From Candidatus Babeliales bacterium (GTDB lineage: Bacteria > Babelota > Babeliae > Babelales > Vermiphilaceae), in contig CAVUQO010000003.1 in assembly GCA_963743635.1 (NCBI GenBank), positions 544,001 through 608,000 of the forward strand: a stretch of 64,000 nucleotides of DNA, read 5' to 3'. Numbering within the stretch: the first letter of the stretch is position 1; each line of letters begins with the position of its first letter. The translations under genes were made by a program, and so were the position numbers. Shown here piece after piece: positions 18,295 through 26,699 of the stretch. The notes under the pieces were generated by a model. It was not told where the DNA came from and made no database searches. It saw only the letters and a list, made by a program, of their open reading frames with translations.

Positions 18295-18720
18295 ATGGAA
18301 AAGAAAACTGCACATACCCCAAAAAAAATGCTCCATTAGGTCATGGCGTTGGTCGTAGAAAATCAGCTGTCGCTCGTGTCTGGTTGAGACGGGGAAAAGG
18401 TAAAATCGTTGTCAATGATAAAGCAATCTGAAAGATATTTTCAAACGGAAATGACTCGAGCAGATGTTATCAAGACCTTTCGCGGTAGCTCCTATGAGTG
18501 CTTCAGTACGATGTGTTCGCACGTGTAAATGGCGGTGGCCTATGCGCCCAAGCTGATGCGGTAAAACTTGGTATTGCACGCGCATTCCTTGATGTCGACG
18601 CTACGCTTACGTCCAGTTCTGCGTCAGAATGATCTTTTAACCGTAGATTCTCGCAATAAAGAGCGTAAAAAATACGGTCAAAAAGCTGCTCGTCGTAAGT
18701 TCCAATTCGTAAAACGTTAA
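18295..18720 (+). CDS. rpsI: 30S ribosomal protein S9, frameshifted, not in the ORF track
   Basis: [33 protein letters not shown] and [24 protein letters not shown] read manually. Confidence 0.93.
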
Positions 18721-18803
18721 AATCTGGTCTCTTTTTATATTCATGCTATGATGCAGTACATATAAAAAGAGGCATTTGATTTTATACTAGAAAAGGATTT
18801 GGA

Positions 18804-20650
18804 ATGTGCGGTATCGTTGGCTATATAGGCAAAAATTACAGTCGAGACTTTGTGCTTGAAGGGTTAGCCCGGCTTAGAATATCGAGGGTATGATTCTGCA
18901 GGTTTTGCCTGTATCGATCCTCAAGATAGTCGACTTTTCTATCATAAAGCGGCAGGTCGTTTAACGAATCTCGTCGAAAAATGTGAACAAATCACACATC
19001 GATGGTCATTTGGGTATCGGCCATACACGTTGGTCTACCCATGGCATCCCATCAGAAAAAAATGCTCATCCGCAATTTGATTGCAATAAAACAATCTCGA
19101 TTATCCATAATGGCATTATCGAAAATCATCATGTGCTCAGAAAACAGCTTGAAGATACTGGTCATATATTCCATTCTCAAACAGATACTGAAATAGTTGC
19201 CCATCTTTTAGAATCATATCTTGCAACCCATAAAACATTTAAAGCCGCCGTGGTTGATTTAGTAAGTCAGCTTGAAGGCGCATATGCGTTTGTAGCGCTA
19301 TTGGAAGATCATCCTGATGTGATGGTTCTCATTCGTAAGCGTTCTCCACTGTGCGTTGGCATTGGTGATGATGAAATGTTTGTGGCATCGGATTTGTTGG
19401 CGTTTGCCGATAAAACAAAAAAAGTGCTTTTCATGCCGGATGAAAGTATTGCCTTTGTTAAGAAAAATAGAATTGAGCTGTATGATTTTCCGGGTAATGT
19501 TATTCCGATACATATTCAAGAAATTACAACGCAATGGTCTGCCTTTGAAAAAAGCGGCCATGAGCATTACATGCTTAAAGAAATTTATCAACAAAAAACC
19601 GCTATTCACGATACGATCACGTTTCTTCATTCGATCCGTAATCGCACATGGGATCACCTTGGTCTTACCGTTGAGCAGGTGCATAATCTGGATCGCTTGC
19701 ATCTTATTGGGTGTGGTACTTCGTGGCATGCAGGGCTCATCGCAGAATTTTTCTTTGAGCAAATTTGCATGATCCCGACCGAAGTGCATCTTGCATCAGA
19801 ATTTCGCTATTGCCATTTTTTCCCCGATAAGAAAGGTGCTTACATCATGATTTCTCAATCGGGTGAAACGGCGGATACGCTTGAAGCATTGCGATATGAT
19901 CAGCATTACAAAATTACCCACCATTGCATTAACCAACGTTGCATCGAGCACTATGGTGCGTGAAGCAGATGGCTTTTTACTGACGCAAGCGGGACAAGAG
20001 GTTGCCGTAGCTTCTACAAAAGCATTTTCTACTCAAGTGGCAGCATTATATTGGTTAGCTCATCGCATTGCGCTTGAGAAAAAGTTGATCACTGAAGCTC
20101 AAATGGATCAGGCTGAAGAAGATTTATTGGTGGTGGCTGAAGTGCTTGAAAATAGCATTGAAAACTATAAAATTGATATCGTGCAAACGATTGCACCACG
20201 TTATGCGAAATACAAAAAAGTTATTTTTTTGGGACGCAATATTAGTTATCCGTTTGCAATGGAAGCCGCATTAAAACTTAAAGAAATTTCTTATATTTTT
20301 GCACAATGTTATCCTGCTGGTGAATTAAAGCATGGAGCGCTCGCATTGGTTGATGCCGAAACGCCCGTCTTTATCTTCTCTCATCAAGATCCACTGATTT
20401 ATCAAAAATTGGTTTCTAATGCACAGGAAGTAAAAGCGCGTGGGGCTCATATCGTCGTCTTTGCTTTTGATGGCCAAGATGAATTATTTCGCTTGCAGAT
20501 CAAGTCTTTATCATGCCTCGCGTGCGTCCATTACTCGGCCCACTGGCGATGACCGGCCTCATGCAATTCTTGGTCTATCATATGGCTAAAGTCCTTGGCT
20601 GCCCGATTGATAAACCGCGCAACTTGGCAAAATCAGTAACAGTTGAATAA
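18804..20650 (+). CDS. glmS: Glutamine--fructose-6-phosphate aminotransferase, several frameshifts
   Basis: MCGIVG, GHTRW, SQSGETADT, VASTKAF, ELKHG, PRNLAKSVTVE-stop. Confidence 0.96.
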
Positions 20651-20663
20651 CGAACTATAGAAT

Positions 20664-20710
20664 AAATAAGAACCCCCAGAGAACCATACGGCTTTCTGGG
20701 GGTCTTATTT
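20664..20710 (+). terminator. glmS terminator
   Basis: aaataagaacccccaga / tctgggggtcttattt stem. Confidence 0.7.
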
Positions 20711-20775
20711 ATTTCTGATATTTTGTGTTATCCTGATAATAATATTGCATGAATCATACATAAGGGAATCATAGT

Positions 20776-21291
20776 ATGACTATTATATCTAAAGTGACTC
20801 GTAAGAATCCAATGGCATTATTGCTTGGCATAATCGCATTAACCGGCATTACAGCACGGGCAATGGATGACCAAAGGGCAGCCCAGATAATCAAAAATAT
20901 GGAATGCCCAAGCGTAGAGGATGTATTGGAAGTATATTCGAAAGTAGAATCGGAAGAAGTGCAAATATTTGATGTTTATGAATGTTTTCTAAAAGATCCA
21001 CAGGTTAAGGGTATGGATCGTGAAGAAGTGAGTAAAGCTCTGCAGGATTTTGGGAGGCAAGCTCAGGGAGTTAACCCACCGTATTCTTATGACTCAGTTG
21101 AAGAGCTTGGTAATACATTTAAGGTTCTTGAGCATGGGGGAAGGCTAAATGTAACGACACTCAGAGGTGCCCTAGAGTTAGATCAATACAAAGATCAAGA
21201 GTTATCAATAAAAAATGCTATCGCAAGTTACGAAAAGTTCAGTACAATACTTGGCGAAATTGTTAAAATTCTGAAATACACTGGAAACTAA
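20776..21291 (+). CDS. Secreted hypothetical protein
   Basis: Signal peptide ending ARA-M; flanked by terminators. Confidence 0.7.
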   Translation: MTIISKVTRKNPMALLLGIIALTGITARAMDDQRAAQIIKNMECPSVEDVLEVYSKVESEEVQIFDVYECFLKDPQVKGMDREEVSKALQDFGRQAQGVNPPYSYDSVEELGNTFKVLEHGGRLNVTTLRGALELDQYKDQELSIKNAIASYEKFSTILGEIVKILKYTGN

Positions 21292-21308
21292 AAATAACTG
21301 AATAACTA

Positions 21309-21350
21309 AAAAAAGGCAGAGCCCCAAAATTTCGGGGCTCTGCCTTTTTT
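21309..21350. terminator. Bidirectional terminator
   Basis: aaaaaaggcagagcccc / ggggctctgcctttttt. Confidence 0.85.
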
Positions 21351-21359
21351 ATAGCAAAG

Positions 21360-21434
21360 CTACTTAATCTCAGTAAACTGTATCTTCTCATTGCTTAAAT
21401 AATGTTTCTTCATAAATTCAAGCGATTCTTTACG
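21360..21434 (-). pseudogene. Displaced duplicate of the last 25 codons of ctpA
   Basis: Translates RKESLEFMKKHYLSNEKIQFTEIK-stop against ctpA RKESLEFMKKHYLSNEKIEFTEIK-stop; 63/75 nt identical to 23045-23119. Confidence 0.9.
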
Positions 21435-21442
21435 GAAGGGGA

Positions 21443-23005
21443 TTACTTGATTCCCGACCCTTCAGATTTAAGAGCAGCTTCTTGAGGCCTCTTTTCTTTA
21501 ATGCGTTTTCTCGCTCGAGGAAGCATCTTTGAAGTGAATGTGGTTGCACCCTTAACGCCTTTATAATAGTTGGCAGCTTTTTGTTGCGTTTTTATCACTT
21601 GCTGTGCAAATATTTTTTCCTCTTCAGTCATAGTGCTTTCATCACCAAATTGAATGATTCGTCCATTATTTGCAAGGAATTGGGAGAAAAGGGATGCATG
21701 CTTTAATGGATCGCGCGTGATGAGAACCACGCCCGTTGGATCATTCAGTTTTGTTCCATGAACTCCGAGTATTTGAAATGTCTGAGAATCTTTTTTTAAA
21801 ACTGCAGCTTTAGTCCGAGAGTGAAAATATTCACCCGCGGTAAAGAAGCTTATTGCAGTAAAGAGGGGTGCGATAAAAAAAAGATCGGAACTTCGATTAT
21901 CAATATAATCCCTTTTATTGATGAGTAAGGCGTAGCCCGCGTTTTTTCTTAAAAATAAATAAGCGCATGCGGTGGGATCATTGAATATTCCAGCAAAAAG
22001 AGAGTTACCAAAAGATATAGAATAAGGTTTCAATGTATTTTGTTTGTATTCTTTTTCAAAAGATGCTTCTTGTGAATTGAGGACTGTAGTACCAGCGAGA
22101 ATCTTATTTTCTGACTTATTACCAACTATTGCAGGTTCGAATTTTATAAAAGATGTACCACGCACAACTATTGCCTTATTGAGCTTTCTCGCTTCATATT
22201 CTATATCAATATAATGTGAAATTATTTGATATTCAAACTCTGATCCTATGCCAAGGAAAAATTCTCTAGCTAATCTCGGATCATAATTTTCGTCGGCTAG
22301 TAACTGATTGACGAACGAACTTAAAATTTCCATTGCTTTATCTTTAATCAGATCGCAGCATTCGAGTGAGTTTTTGCAAGAGCGAAGATTTGGATATGAT
22401 TCTAACAAAAGATTGACGATTGCATCATTCATATAATAATGAAGATCATGACCAGGCTTAACAATTCTTTGATTCATGTTCTGATATATCGTCTTAATAT
22501 CTTGTCTTATTTCCTCAGCTTCTTTTTTACTCTCTATTATTGGATTTAGTCTCAGTGTATGACTTTTAGGGTCAGACATCTCTTTTTTTATATCCATCGG
22601 AATGGTAGGTTCACTCGTTTCATTGGGTATAAGCAGATCTAATATTAGATAGAGCTCATAGAGTGCGGTTGGAAAAAAAATAACGCGATAGGTATTATTC
22701 CCCGTTGCATGCTGTATCTTTTTTTCTATCCAAAGCTCTTCGGCATTTGGCTTATCGGGTGTAAAGAGATCCCCCGTTTCAGCGAGTACCTTGCGCCGTT
22801 CGGTAATTGGATCGAGCGCATACGCAGCGCTTGCAGGCCATTGGTATTGTAACAATATTTTTTCGATAACTGGGTTGTTTTTTTTATCCGAATCATCGAG
22901 TGGCGTAAAGCCGGCTTCAGTTTGCTTGAGAATAAGCAGTTCTGCGTGGGCGATTCGTGAGCAAAACAGCAAGCTTATTGCAAATAAACGAATTTTTGAA
23001 TACAT
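21443..23005 (-). CDS. Secreted 520-aa hypothetical protein, possible ADP-ribosyltransferase-like C-terminal domain
   Basis: Signal peptide; VVRG...YSISF...GEYFH arrangement; function is inferred. Confidence 0.7.
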   Translation of the reverse strand: MYSKIRLFAISLLFCSRIAHAELLILKQTEAGFTPLDDSDKKNNPVIEKILLQYQWPASAAYALDPITERRKVLAETGDLFTPDKPNAEELWIEKKIQHATGNNTYRVIFFPTALYELYLILDLLIPNETSEPTIPMDIKKEMSDPKSHTLRLNPIIESKKEAEEIRQDIKTIYQNMNQRIVKPGHDLHYYMNDAIVNLLLESYPNLRSCKNSLECCDLIKDKAMEILSSFVNQLLADENYDPRLAREFFLGIGSEFEYQIISHYIDIEYEARKLNKAIVVRGTSFIKFEPAIVGNKSENKILAGTTVLNSQEASFEKEYKQNTLKPYSISFGNSLFAGIFNDPTACAYLFLRKNAGYALLINKRDYIDNRSSDLFFIAPLFTAISFFTAGEYFHSRTKAAVLKKDSQTFQILGVHGTKLNDPTGVVLITRDPLKHASLFSQFLANNGRIIQFGDESTMTEEEKIFAQQVIKTQQKAANYYKGVKGATTFTSKMLPRARKRIKEKRPQEAALKSEGSGIK

Positions 23006-23044
23006 AAATTTTCCCTTTTTTTTAGTGCGCTCGGTACGGGCGCG

Positions 23045-24505
23045 TTATTTGATTTCAGTAAATTCTATTTTCTCATTGCTCAAATAATGCTTCTTCATGA
23101 ATTCAAGCGACTCTTTGCGATTTTTCATTGAAGTCTTGCAGACCGTTTTGCCCAAGTAAAAGAGATTAATCAGATTAATTGTTTCTTTAAATTGGTTATC
23201 ATTTTGCAAGCCTTCTTGTATGCGCGCAGACCAGTTTTTGATCGCTTCAGATTGAGCTGTTTTTTCATCTTTTTTGTTTTCTTTATAATCATGCGGTTTT
23301 AAATAATTTGCAGATGATGCTTCGCGCCCATAGTTTTTGGTAAACCATTCCACTTGTTCTGTCGGTGGATAGGTGCGGTCAATGACGAAATCGGGTTCTA
23401 GGCCGGTTGCTTGGATTGTTGTGTCATTTGAGAAGTAGTAGATGGAAGTCGTCAATTTAAGCGCGCAGTTGTTGCTGATTGGTATCACTTCTTGCACCGT
23501 CCCTTTGCCATGGCTATCTGACCCGACGAGGAATACTTGAAGGTTATTGTTACCGGCATCGGAATGAATACGCAAGCAGCCAGCAAGAATTTCCGCTGCT
23601 GATGCGGTATAGTTATTCACCAGAATAAAGATTGGTGGTGGGTTTTTGACCATAGGATCGCGGCGCGTTACATAACGATCAGTTTCTTTATTGTTTTTAT
23701 TGCGTGACGATACGATATGCGTTCCTTTATCAAGGAATATCCCTGCGATGTCGACCGCTGATGAAAGTAATCCGCCCAGATTATTGCGCAGATCAAGAAT
23801 GAGTGCTTTGTATTCTTTCTTTTTTGAAAGTTCAATTAGTTTTTCTAGCTGCTTTAAGGCATTATCGCTAAAAGAGTTGAGCAATAAATAGCAGATGTTT
23901 TGTTTTTCTAAATAAAATGAGAGTGTATTTTGCTCATTAATAAGATCGCGTGTGATATCAAAGGTGAGTACGTTTTGATTTTTATCACGCATAATTTTCA
24001 ATTGCACCTTGGTGTCGCGTGGGCCTTTAATGCGTGCGGTTGCCTCATCAGTTGTCATGCCATCAAGTGATTTGCCATCAATTTCAACAATCTTATCCAT
24101 CGGCCGCAATTCAGCTTTTTCTGCGGGGCCGCCGGGCACTACGTCAATAATAGTGAGCGTTTTATCTTTTGGTTGGCGTGTATTATCGATTACTACGCCA
24201 ACGCCATAAAATTCACCACTGGTGGCATCGAGAATCATTTTATATGTCTTGGGATCGAGAAACGCTGAATGCTTATCAAGACTGTTTAAAAAAGCATCAA
24301 TTGCCTTGATCATGCAGTCTTCCACGTCATCCGCTTTATAGTGCCGTTGTTTTGTGAGATTTACCGTTTCAGCAAAGGTGCGTGTCCAGTTATAAAAGAG
24401 GGTGTCAAAATCCCCTTTGGGTGTTTCAGGTTTTTCATCTGCGAAGAGGGAAAGCGGGATAAGAAGATGGGTGATGCATAATGCATATTTGAGGGTGTTT
24501 TTCAT
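23045..24505 (-). CDS. ctpA: Carboxyl-terminal processing protease (S41)
   Basis: PDZ domain (GVGV, GGPAEKA), LDLRNNLGG, TASAAEI, GKGTVQ. Confidence 0.93.
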   Translation of the reverse strand: MKNTLKYALCITHLLIPLSLFADEKPETPKGDFDTLFYNWTRTFAETVNLTKQRHYKADDVEDCMIKAIDAFLNSLDKHSAFLDPKTYKMILDATSGEFYGVGVVIDNTRQPKDKTLTIIDVVPGGPAEKAELRPMDKIVEIDGKSLDGMTTDEATARIKGPRDTKVQLKIMRDKNQNVLTFDITRDLINEQNTLSFYLEKQNICYLLLNSFSDNALKQLEKLIELSKKKEYKALILDLRNNLGGLLSSAVDIAGIFLDKGTHIVSSRNKNNKETDRYVTRRDPMVKNPPPIFILVNNYTASAAEILAGCLRIHSDAGNNNLQVFLVGSDSHGKGTVQEVIPISNNCALKLTTSIYYFSNDTTIQATGLEPDFVIDRTYPPTEQVEWFTKNYGREASSANYLKPHDYKENKKDEKTAQSEAIKNWSARIQEGLQNDNQFKETINLINLFYLGKTVCKTSMKNRKESLEFMKKHYLSNEKIEFTEIK

Positions 24506-24600
24506 AGGAAATCCTTTTTGGTAAAATGTAGTTATCAATCATAATAATGATATGATGAAGGCATACGAAATAGTTTGATGCAAAAAGAGAGGTGGCACGC

Positions 24601-25515
24601 ATGGAATCAGAACATATCTCTGCAGATTTAATAAAACAGGTGCATGTACAAGGCAGTCATGAAGATCAAGTGATTATTGTGACTGGATATTCAGGGGCGG
24701 GTAAGAGTTCCGTGCTGCGCACGCTTGAAGATAGTGGCTTTTTGTGTGTGGATAATTTGCCGATTGCATTGCTAGGACAATTTTTCGATCTTATTGATCA
24801 AACAACGATGGGTAAAAAGCGGGTTGCCCTCGGGATCGATATTCGTGGTGGGGATCGCATGGAATCGGTAGTTGAAGCACTGTTGCATATGAAGATTAAG
24901 TTTTCCACCTTAAAAATTCTTTTTTTACGTGCGAGTGCACCTATACTCATGAAGCGATTTCAAGAAACGCGGCGCAAGCATCCGCTTGCCGATAACATTC
25001 ATTTGAGTGATGCGATCGAGCAGGAGCGCATTATGCTGCAGCCGCTCGTTGATCGTTCTGATATGATTTTCGATACCGATCAGCTTACCGTGCATCAATT
25101 GCGCAGTATGATACGTGCAACTTTCTCGCAAGGGCAATCACAAAAAATAGTCGTGAGCTTGATTTCATTCGGATTCAAATATGGTATTCCCACTGAAAGT
25201 AATTATGTATTCGATGTGCGCTCGTTGCCTAATCCCTATTTTGTAGAATCGCTCAAATTGCATACCGGGACCGATGCCTGCATCAATGCATATTTGTTTG
25301 AAAAGCAGCCAGTTCAGGAATATTGGGTCCGACTTATTGATTTTATACGATACGCTATTGCAAAATCATATGAGGAAGGGCGATGTTTTATCAATATTGC
25401 GATCGGATGTACTGGTGGAAAACATCGTTCAGTGGCATTTATTGAAAAAATTGCGCTTGAGGAGATCCCCAATACTCATTTTCTATTGCAGCATCGTGAT
25501 ATAGAGCGGGACTAA
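24601..25515 (+). CDS. rapZ: RNase adapter RapZ/YhbJ/YvcJ
   Basis: TGYSGAGKS, VDNLP, ETRRKHPL, SFGFKYG, GCTGGKHRSV. Confidence 0.95.
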   Translation: MESEHISADLIKQVHVQGSHEDQVIIVTGYSGAGKSSVLRTLEDSGFLCVDNLPIALLGQFFDLIDQTTMGKKRVALGIDIRGGDRMESVVEALLHMKIKFSTLKILFLRASAPILMKRFQETRRKHPLADNIHLSDAIEQERIMLQPLVDRSDMIFDTDQLTVHQLRSMIRATFSQGQSQKIVVSLISFGFKYGIPTESNYVFDVRSLPNPYFVESLKLHTGTDACINAYLFEKQPVQEYWVRLIDFIRYAIAKSYEEGRCFINIAIGCTGGKHRSVAFIEKIALEEIPNTHFLLQHRDIERD

Positions 25516-25573
25516 CCCTTCGATATGGGCGTGCCGCCCTACTCAGGATGAATTAAAAATGTCTCGAATGGGT
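25515..25573. repeat. Short member of the palindromic family
   Basis: acccttcgata...ctcagg...tgtctcgaatgggt termini. Confidence 0.7.
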
Positions 25574-25595
25574 GCGAATAATAAAAGGAGAAGCG

Positions 25596-25877
25596 ATGAA
25601 GAAATTATATGCGTACACGCTCTATACAATACTCGGCGTTGAAGTATTACTGTTTGCAGGTTTCTATTTTCGTGGTCCTCAGGGATTGCAAAAACTGAGT
25701 GGTATGTATGCAGAGCAGGATGTCATGCGTGAGGAAGTAGATAAGATCAATCAAGAAGTTGCAGCATTGAAGCATGATATTGATGCGTGGCAAAAACATC
25801 CATTTCATAAAGAAAAAATTGCACGCGAACAATTACAAATGGCTCGTACTGATGACGAAGTGTTTTATTTGACATAA
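25596..25877 (+). CDS. ftsB: Septum formation initiator FtsB/DivIC family
   Basis: TM followed by GPQG, coiled coil, EKIAREQLQM...E. Confidence 0.8.
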   Translation: MKKLYAYTLYTILGVEVLLFAGFYFRGPQGLQKLSGMYAEQDVMREEVDKINQEVAALKHDIDAWQKHPFHKEKIAREQLQMARTDDEVFYLT

Positions 25878-25914
25878 AATATAGAAAAAATTGAATTAGA
25901 TAATTCTTCCCCTA

Positions 25915-26042
25915 ACCCATTCGATATTTTCCTCTCCTTACGGAATCGAAAAATCCTCAGGGCGAACGGGGATGGATATTATTTCCGTTCGCCCTGAGGA
26001 TTCTGAGTTGAGTGTAGCGAAACGAAGAATGTCTCGAAGGGT
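25915..26042. repeat. Full palindromic REP-doublet/MITE-like element
   Basis: Terminal acccattcga / tcgaagggt; internal inverted repeat tcctcagggcgaacgg / ccgttcgccctgagga. Confidence 0.85.
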
Positions 26043-26084
26043 AAAACGGAAGTAAGTAATATACACCCTTTAAAAAGGAATATC

Positions 26085-26699
26085 ATGTTTTATACCCTAC
26101 CAAAACTACCCTATGCCTATGATGCATTAGAGCCGCATATCGATGCGCGTACTATGGAAATTCATTATACCAAGCATCATCAAGCCTACATTGATAATCT
26201 CAATGCTGCGCTTGCAAAACATCCTGCAATTGCAGAAATACCGTTGTATGAGTTACTTTCAAATATGGATCAAGTGCCCCATGATATTCGCACGGCGGTA
26301 CAGAATAATGGCGGTGGTCACTATAACCATACTTTTTTCTGGGCCATCATGAGCCCTAATGGCGGCGGTGAACCAAAAGGAAGCGTCGCAGATGCCATCA
26401 ATAAAAAATTCGGTTCATTTTATGCATTCCAAGAGCAGTTTAATGCGGCAGCAAAGGGCGTTTTTGGCAGCGGATGGGCGTGGCTTGGAATCGATAAAAT
26501 GGGGCAGCTCATGATCATATCAGCACCAAATCAAAATGCGCCTATCATGCAAGGCATTAAGCCGATACTAGGCCTCGATGTCTGGGAGCATGCCTACTAC
26601 TTGAAATATCAAAATAAGCGTCCCGATTATATTACTGCATGGTGGAACGTGGTGAACTGGGAGCAGGTCGGGGAACACTTTGAATTGATAAGTCGCTAA
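26085..26699 (+). CDS. sodA: Mn/Fe superoxide dismutase
   Basis: [37 protein letters not shown]. Confidence 0.95.

Follow-up and report, generated by a model that had tools for sequence, protein, structure and literature searches.

In the window analyzed here, a 64,000-nucleotide stretch of the genome of a Candidatus Babeliales bacterium, the last 24 codons and the stop codon of ctpA, encoding an S41-family C-terminal processing peptidase, occur twice, on either side of a single accessory gene of 520 amino acids (aa). We refer to this cargo gene (21443-23005) and its product as X520. We propose, with moderate confidence, that DNA of a sister species was spliced in at this site, homologously on one side and illegitimately on the other, in a manner resembling homology-facilitated illegitimate recombination (HFIR) and with no dedicated mobile element. 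The window corresponds to positions 544001-608000 of contig 3 (C3) of a genome (G000) assembled in three contigs (C1-C3, 1.45 Mb), and the completeness of this metagenome-type assembly is rated at 85%. Below, X1, X2, and X3 denote sequencing runs, and L numbers denote loci from relatives or from the same genome.

The two copies, termed the distal tail (21360-21434) and the proximal tail (23045-23119), are both encoded on the minus strand and bracket 1,610 nucleotides (nt). The proximal tail, translated as RKESLEFMKKHYLSNEKIEFTEIK and a stop, is the true end of the 497-aa open reading frame (ORF) at 23045-24538, whereas the distal tail, RKESLEFMKKHYLSNEKIQFTEIK and a stop, lies within a 33-codon open frame without a plausible start. 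A base-by-base comparison showed 63/75 identical nucleotides, and 23 of the 24 residues are the same, the common peptide being RKESLEFMKKHYLSNEKI(Q/E)FTEIK. Third codon positions hold 11 of the 12 differences, that between the stop codons TAG and TAA included, and all 11 are transitions; the twelfth, a first-position C/G difference, causes the sole amino acid change (Q/E), and there are no indels. By our arithmetic, at least 11 of 12 differences at third positions would arise with P ~5e-5 if all positions were equally likely to be hit. Among the 22 degenerate codons with an unchanged amino acid, 10 differ between the tails. The non-synonymous divergence (dN) of the pair is 0.017, and for the synonymous divergence (dS) the NG86 method returned -1, that is, no estimate. 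In extended alignments the similarity ended sharply at both edges of the 75 nt. When one tail was compared by blastn with the 1.45-Mb genome, the other was recovered with an E-value of 3e-13 and the next matches had E-values of 0.07 or worse. The repeat given in a preliminary description of this DNA was confirmed in every detail, as was its account of a distal copy that lacks a usable start and abuts a terminator (21309-21350), which lies 9 nt from the tail. Because third positions hold all but one of the 12 differences, the two ends must have separated as working orthologues before being brought together in one genome; this, together with the low dN, bears out the earlier proposal of a related donor lineage rather than a local duplication. 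A fusion of the tail to X520 by read-through or frameshift was rejected, since a TAA codon and 8 nt precede the tail and its frame is a different one. The ctpA product has Peptidase_S41 and PDZ domains in Pfam and scores above the cut-off of TIGR00225 ('prc'), so that CtpA is a loose but fair name for this S41 peptidase.

To assess the arrangement in independent assemblies, we used the sequencing runs in which the region is partly present (12 runs from four studies, none of them listed as RNA) and compared the contigs of four of them over positions 18500-26500. A 6,524-nt contig of run X1 spans 21370-24782 with 23 differences and one gap (99.3% identity). The joint between the distal tail and X520 is bridged by X1 record 4, X2 record 15, and X3 record 21, and the spacer between X520 and ctpA by the X1 contig, X2 record 16, and X3 record 24, in each case from two studies. 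The tails share no 31-mer and no identical run longer than 11 nt, and because of the latter, k-mer assemblers would be unable to confuse them. The possibility raised in the preliminary description, that the duplication is a chimera of two strains, is thus excluded for the unit of tail, X520, and ctpA, both junctions being present in three contigs from two studies. The segment 21370-21434 of the distal tail is at least 99% identical in the X1, X2, and X3 contigs.

To the left of the scar, strain X1 departs from the window. Its contig is only ~94% identical to the window over the flank containing glmS (19092-20703); after this, 12 nt take the place of a 171-aa ORF, 27 nt match 21281-21307, and ~1,443 nt are unlike the window, before the two sequences rejoin at 21370. 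The X2 contig also breaks at 21370 and has at least 622 nt that do not resemble the window. Strain X1 and the window are ~94% identical left of the scar and at least 99% identical from 21370 to at least 26500. Close strains share the tail, X520, and ctpA almost identically, and the switch in ancestry lies inside the orphan tail, at 21370. This position is also the start of the local alignment between the tail copies, and for this reason the tails of the strains may simply continue past it with few changes. The contrast between 94% and 99.3% shows that the flanks on the left and on the right differ in their history, without indicating the event that made the scar. Exchange among ~94%-identical lineages is active, with a switch at the scar.

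The site was also compared with those of relatives. CtpA was present in 26 of the 31 genomes searched (our own included), and its nearest species representatives were ~55% identical. In 20 loci from relatives, the genes on the 5' side of ctpA are conserved (ftsB, sodA, lysS, and sometimes rapZ), and on the 3' side a whole glmS gene converges on ctpA in 9 of the 20, across a spacer of ~255 nt (L032) to ~3.5 kb. X520 and the 171-aa ORF were found in none of the 20. Between genera, the C-terminal 24 residues of CtpA differ strongly. A metagenome scan yielded nine loci, four of them with CtpA ~80% identical to ours, which we regard as congeners. In two of these the site is empty: in L046 the stop codons of ctpA and glmS adjoin, 0 nt apart, and in L044 the genes are separated by ~94 nt with one hairpin. 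The other two, L045 and L047, carry other ORFs downstream of ctpA, that of L047 being a 473-aa ORF on the same strand. Both the empty site and the different cargo that the preliminary description suggested looking for were thus observed, and the region is an insertion relative to relatives. A second ctpA tail was absent from all 28 relatives' loci, in which the best ungapped score was 35 compared to 100 for the window pair, and the cargo between the tails had no counterpart at the ctpA site in any of them. The glmS-ctpA spacer is a variable site, its content differing among the window, strain X1, and the congeners L045 and L047. The comparison of both tails with orthologous ctpA ends, also suggested earlier, could be performed with the four congeners; it gave 13-18 nt differences for the proximal and 15-19 for the distal tail, which does not tell the origins of the two apart. 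In L036 (6849-6974; contig 5 of G003, another genus), a fragment resembling 42 residues of the GlmS N-terminus was observed 27 nt from the ctpA 3' end, a possible remnant at the same site.

X520, encoded on the minus strand, has an N-terminus resembling a signal peptide and is a member of a family specific to Babeliales. Two tandem paralogues (43% identity) are present on contig 2 of the same genome. Among 64 relatives in a large protein collection, one is 99% identical and is encoded on the 6,524-nt contig described above, and the next is 46% identical. In other Babeliales metagenome-assembled genomes (MAGs), members of the family form tandem arrays of up to five (loci L067-L102). X520 matched no family in Pfam, NCBIfam, or PHROG. 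Its AlphaFold2 model is confident (mean pLDDT, the predicted local distance difference test, 88); Foldseek retrieved nothing from the PDB at an E-value of 0.001 or below (best E-value, 0.69), with VIA-align the highest Z among 48,161 chains was 3.9 and no solved relative emerged, and the ESM Atlas returned only scores of 0.79 or less. Neither ctpA nor glmS lies within 6 kb of an X520 relative in any of 36 genome loci, and in the four genomes of the bacterial family that have X520 relatives, these are at least 100 kb from ctpA. Because its relatives were never found near ctpA, we conclude that X520 is a lineage-specific accessory gene of an ordinary kind and does not travel as a passenger of ctpA. 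Residues ~303-417 of X520 also match three loci of Chlamydiae MAGs (L090, L100, and L101).

The ctpA scar is one of several in this genome. All 1,176 ORFs of at least 150 aa were compared with their surroundings (an earlier scan had used C-terminal peptides), resulting in 47 short orphan matches. In 12 of these, the match is a gene tail on the downstream side of the gene it belongs to. Two paralogues with a match to one copy were counted together and one case in a tandem-repeat ORF was set aside, which left ten loci, ctpA included, with repeat lengths of 33-343 nt. The cargo is co-oriented with the gene at ctpA and opposite to it at ychF (C3:744242-745357; YchF-GTPase_C and MMR_HSR1 domains). 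At the latter gene, a 343-nt unit is made up of the final ~228 nt of ychF, 54 nt of spacer, and a mini-tail of 33 nt that encodes the last ten residues again; the unit is repeated ~1.8 kb (1,829 nt) downstream, around an opposite-strand 570-aa Sel1-repeat gene (C3 741961-745357, equivalent to L053 1961-5357). The coding differences between the two units number 4, 2, and 21 at the first, second, and third codon positions, and the best 57 codons give a dN of 0.007 and a dS of 0.48. Between the mini-tail and the end of the gene, 10/33 nt (70% identity) and 0/11 amino acids differ. The ychF locus is a nested scar, in which an older event with 54 nt of 'cargo' was later duplicated within a second event. 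The variable lengths of the remnants and this 54-nt 'cargo' fit random illegitimate joints rather than a single att site.

The eight further orphan tails downstream of their own gene (C2:296447-298149, C2:346647-351395, C2:488565-489900, C3:122950-125285, C3:239361-240878, C3:247246-249756, C3:706951-709897, and C3:769221-770874) comprise 16-65 residues, with 0.2-3.9 kb between the copies. Their genes include a Mur ligase, a sulfotransferase-like and a hydrolase-like gene, and an outer-membrane-like paralogue. An excess of third-position differences was also found at the Mur-ligase gene (3, 3, 9) and the outer-membrane-like paralogue (1, 2, 9), and the remaining loci were mixed (4, 4, 8; 5, 3, 7; 7, 9, 12) or, with 1 difference in 102 nt, nearly identical. 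A Mur-ligase gene on C2 appears to be split (182 + 251 aa). The genome scan also revealed four upstream 'head' remnants.

Searches for recombinases in the genome returned three matches to PF00589 (tyrosine recombinases), namely two Xer-like proteins encoded at C3:608.7 kb and C3:774.5 kb and a divergent member on C1, a contig of 41 kb, as well as two matches to PF00239 (serine recombinases), both on C2. Within ~41 kb of the scar neither family was detected, the nearest recombinase being Xer-like. X520 itself matches no recombinase family and none is encoded beside the insert, in agreement with the earlier remark that the cassette holds no integrase. RecA, DprA, and a ComEC-like gene were found in the genome. 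The tyrosine recombinase on C1 (2960-3364) is, by score, not Xer-like, and C1 may be a plasmid or another mobile element.

On these observations we base the following proposal. The distal 75 nt would be a dead, displaced ctpA end, stranded when DNA of a diverged relative, probably a sister species within the same genus, entered the glmS-ctpA spacer. One side of the splice would have been homologous, anchored inside a conserved flanking gene, and the other illegitimate, presumably at 21435-21442 (minus strand), the 8-nt joint between the X520 stop and the orphan tail, where the tail homology ends (21434/21435). The incoming linear DNA would have been recombined by RecA, probably after DNA uptake, with no dedicated recombinase. 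The expected product is an intact ctpA carrying the tail of one lineage, X520 located 39 nt downstream and probably co-transcribed with it, and the last 24 codons of the other lineage stranded before a shared terminator. Two variants can be envisaged. If the anchor was in ctpA, the imported DNA would consist of the 3' part of ctpA and X520; if it was on the glmS side, the import would comprise the glmS flank, the 171-aa ORF, the terminator, and the last 24 codons of ctpA. The second variant, the mirror case, fits as well as the one in which the distal tail is original. The preliminary description had taken the distal tail as the original end; with the mirror case fitting equally and the change in ancestry lying at 21370, inside that tail, this assignment is not established. 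Neither is the idea that a discrete, att-like 1.6-kb cassette entered ctpA, given scars of 33-343 nt, cargo in either orientation, and an X520 family unlinked to ctpA. One-sided homologous plus illegitimate recombination provides a better fit than an att-type cassette because the length of the remnants and the orientation of the cargo vary and X520 is never linked to ctpA elsewhere. The HFIR reading predicts an intact gene, a cargo, an orthologous remnant of arbitrary length, either cargo orientation, nesting, and strain mosaicism, all of which were seen. In a study of Vibrio clusters (PMC5361080), HFIR is proposed for similar displacement scars in gene clusters for type VI secretion (T6SS). 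A donor at a dS of ~0.4-0.6, as at ychF, is also compatible with the ctpA tails, for which the confidence interval at 24 codons is wide.

Several points weigh against this proposal. In experiments, HFIR is orders of magnitude rarer than ordinary recombination, according to the same study (PMC5361080). No donor sequence was found, leaving microhomology at the joint without a comparison. The third-position divergence between the tails, 10/24 codons (0.42), looks as high as that between this ctpA and those of the congeners (0.44-0.48); congener tails differ at 5-7 of 24 residues versus 1/24 here, a weak contrast with only 24 codons (P ~0.03, our estimate). Such low residue change combined with high synonymous change leans toward selection having maintained the tail on a separate element, which keeps both the element reading and the idea of portable homology arms, described below, in play. 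The left part of the window (the 171-aa ORF, the terminator, and 21360-21369) was unconfirmed in all four runs compared, and depth was 0 over 20903-21169 in each of them. The presence of RecA, DprA, and a ComEC-like gene allows an uptake route without proving it: in control searches, ComEC and DprA were widespread in non-competent bacteria too, natural transformation of Babeliales is a supposition, and a literature search on competence in Dependentiae returned nothing specific. Finally, the same scan detected no tail-downstream scar in 65 other Babeliales loci (766 kb, 543 ORFs), and so the process is not obviously general. In L052, one near-case, a fragment of an ABC-ATPase, was observed.

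Among the alternatives, a site-specific element of the kind found at icd, which is occupied in Escherichia coli by e14 and, as a further element, by phage 21, deserves the closest attention, and we consider it unlikely. In such a scenario, an attP site containing the ctpA 3' end would have produced attL and attR, and the integrase would have been lost later or would act in trans. The anatomy at e14 is the same (PMC13626634): the inserted DNA supplies a replacement 3' end, so that the gene stays intact as it reads into the element, and its former end is left at the far side as a C-terminal pseudogene (icdC) with mainly synonymous differences. Direct repeats of the target gene 3' end (63/75 nt) bracket the insert here, and a very low dN with apparently saturated dS is expected of a tail carried by an independent element lineage. 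A divergent tyrosine recombinase is present on C1; this contig has no match to the ctpA tail better than 13 nt. However, the e14 prophage spans 15 kb, has an integrase of its own, and excises site-specifically, whereas the present insert measures 1.6 kb, holds one gene of unknown function and no recombinase, has the nearest one (Xer-like) ~41 kb away, and is associated with variable repeat lengths. The longest identical run between the copies, 11 nt, is short, yet possible for an att core. A single gene, ychF, shows two repeat lengths (33 and 343 nt), cargo occurs in either orientation, and X520 relatives lie near ctpA in 0/36 loci and 0/4 relatives' genomes. No excision joint was present among the eight joints listed from contigs, which cannot show rare forms. 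A Campbell-type single crossover of a circle carrying a ctpA 3' fragment and X520 would also yield exactly a gene, its cargo, and a partial distal copy, and circular intermediates in homologous recombination are proposed for the displaced C-terminal tips of rhs genes by Jackson et al. (2009; PMC2935791). The remnant, however, would represent the homology of the circle, and this amounts to only 75 nt at 84% with no identical run above 11 nt. Such a match is far below what a RecA-mediated crossover requires, and the 33-nt ychF mini-tail, at 70% identity, is even less suitable; we regard this route as improbable.

Two simpler explanations concern the repeat itself. A local tandem or segmental duplication usually yields direct repeats on both sides of a short segment, and the ctpA end would then have diverged in place. 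A non-coding copy, however, would change at all codon positions, in conflict with the third-position bias, the single amino acid change, and the absence of indels described above. If even 6 of the 12 changes had occurred in a neutral copy, one non-synonymous change or fewer would be expected with P ~0.005 by our arithmetic. Given also that the intervening cargo has no counterpart at the site in the 28 relatives' loci, a local duplication is very improbable. An assembly artefact, in which the ctpA ends of two strains were merged in one consensus, would be in keeping with a three-contig metagenome-type assembly of 85% completeness that shows indel discrepancies with other contigs, and it is possible to the left of 21370, where 20704-21369 is uncovered in the four runs compared. 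For the scar itself we give it next to no credence: 21370-21434, X520, and ctpA are contiguous in the X1 contig, the junctions are bridged in X2 and X3 too, and the copies lack a common 31-mer. An integron cassette array was rejected on the basis that there is no integrase nearby, that the spacer and the joint are unique, and that cargo orientation varies between scars. The C-terminal displacement of polymorphic toxins (rhs, T6SS) was likewise rejected, the two ends being 23/24 identical in residues and the gene encoding an S41 peptidase.

A more speculative extension, to which we attach a small probability, is that orphan tails are working parts of an integrase-free transfer of accessory genes in Babeliales, with the cargo traveling together with a recoded gene end and the stranded tails serving as portable homology arms. 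This would explain the ancestry switch at 21370, the nested ychF scars, and synonymously saturated tails with a change at 1/24 residues. If true, stranded tails would stand ready for the next swap.

The ctpA scar belongs to a known kind, that of displaced gene ends left by one-sided recombination or integration, here at a housekeeping gene of an uncultivated Babeliales bacterium. In the sequential displacement of T6SS effectors in Vibrio cholerae, for which HFIR is proposed (PMC5361080), as in our reading of the locus described here, incoming DNA finds its anchor in a conserved upstream gene, the former 3' end is pushed back with the genes behind it and these persist as orphans, an integrase plays no part, and events succeed each other; these nested, successive events compare with the nested ychF scar. 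In contrast, the new ends in Vibrio encode different toxins and the retained immunity genes are under selection, whereas here the ends are orthologous, the protease encoded has a housekeeping role, and no use is apparent for the orphan tail. Displacement of rhs C-termini (PMC2935791) similarly leaves detached 3' tips arrayed downstream of a gene that is itself intact; it differs in that the domains are variable toxins and that the circular intermediates proposed have long core homology, as opposed to 75 nt at 84% here. The variable glmS-ctpA spacer has a further parallel in Neisseria. The minimal mobile elements of Neisseria are sites flanked by conserved genes that hold strain-variable accessory genes, exchanged by transformation and flanking homology. 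Their exchange takes two homologous crossovers and, unlike the ctpA scar, is not known to leave a gene end duplicated.

Dependentiae/Babeliales are uncultivated and host-dependent, and how they gain accessory genes is largely obscure; scars of this type provide a natural record of single acquisitions. They reveal the cargo (secreted and repeat proteins, lineage-specific families), the landing site (directly behind conserved genes), and the distance of the donor (dS ~0.5 or more). They also indicate that these small genomes are shaped by recombination among lineages of ~85-94% identity, with no dedicated elements at the sites studied. The codon-position test applied to orphan gene ends is a simple and general way to detect such events in other genomes.

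The remaining features of the locus are as follows. On the left border of the variable spacer, glmS (18983-20651, plus strand; Pfam GATase and SIS domains on two ORFs) is conserved and convergent on ctpA, and its canonical end, VTVE and a stop, lies at 20637-20651 (stop codon, 20649-20651). In the window this gene is split into three frame segments, and relatives' homologues are single-frame. The X1 and X2 contigs have one nucleotide fewer at 19893 and an extra G after 20487, which would restore a single frame; the split is either a broken gene or the result of indel errors in the assembly. A hairpin terminator of glmS follows at 20672-20703 (plus strand), and the left flank held in common with X1 stops at 20703. 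The 171-aa ORF (20776-21291, plus strand), a strain-variable cargo on the glmS side, had no match in Pfam, NCBIfam, or PHROG. The terminator at 21309-21350 is intrinsic and bidirectional: its stem has 19 pairs, 9 of them G-C, and T runs are present on either strand. It acts for the 171-aa ORF and probably for the ctpA-X520 transcript as well. The 39-nt spacer that separates the stop of ctpA from the start of X520 (23006-23044, minus strand) includes a G+C-rich hairpin (23023-23047) without a U-run on the ctpA strand, and in the X1, X2, and X3 contigs the T-run at 23015 is one T longer than in the window. Neither this spacer nor the 31 nt around the joint has another copy in the genome. Beyond ctpA (23045-24538, minus strand), rapZ, ftsB/divIC, sodA, and lysS follow on the plus strand. 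Between ftsB and sodA, a palindromic repeat of 176 nt (25893-26068), resembling a miniature inverted-repeat transposable element, has 44 blastn matches in the genome, 43 besides itself, and in the X1 and X2 contigs it is replaced by 2 nt.

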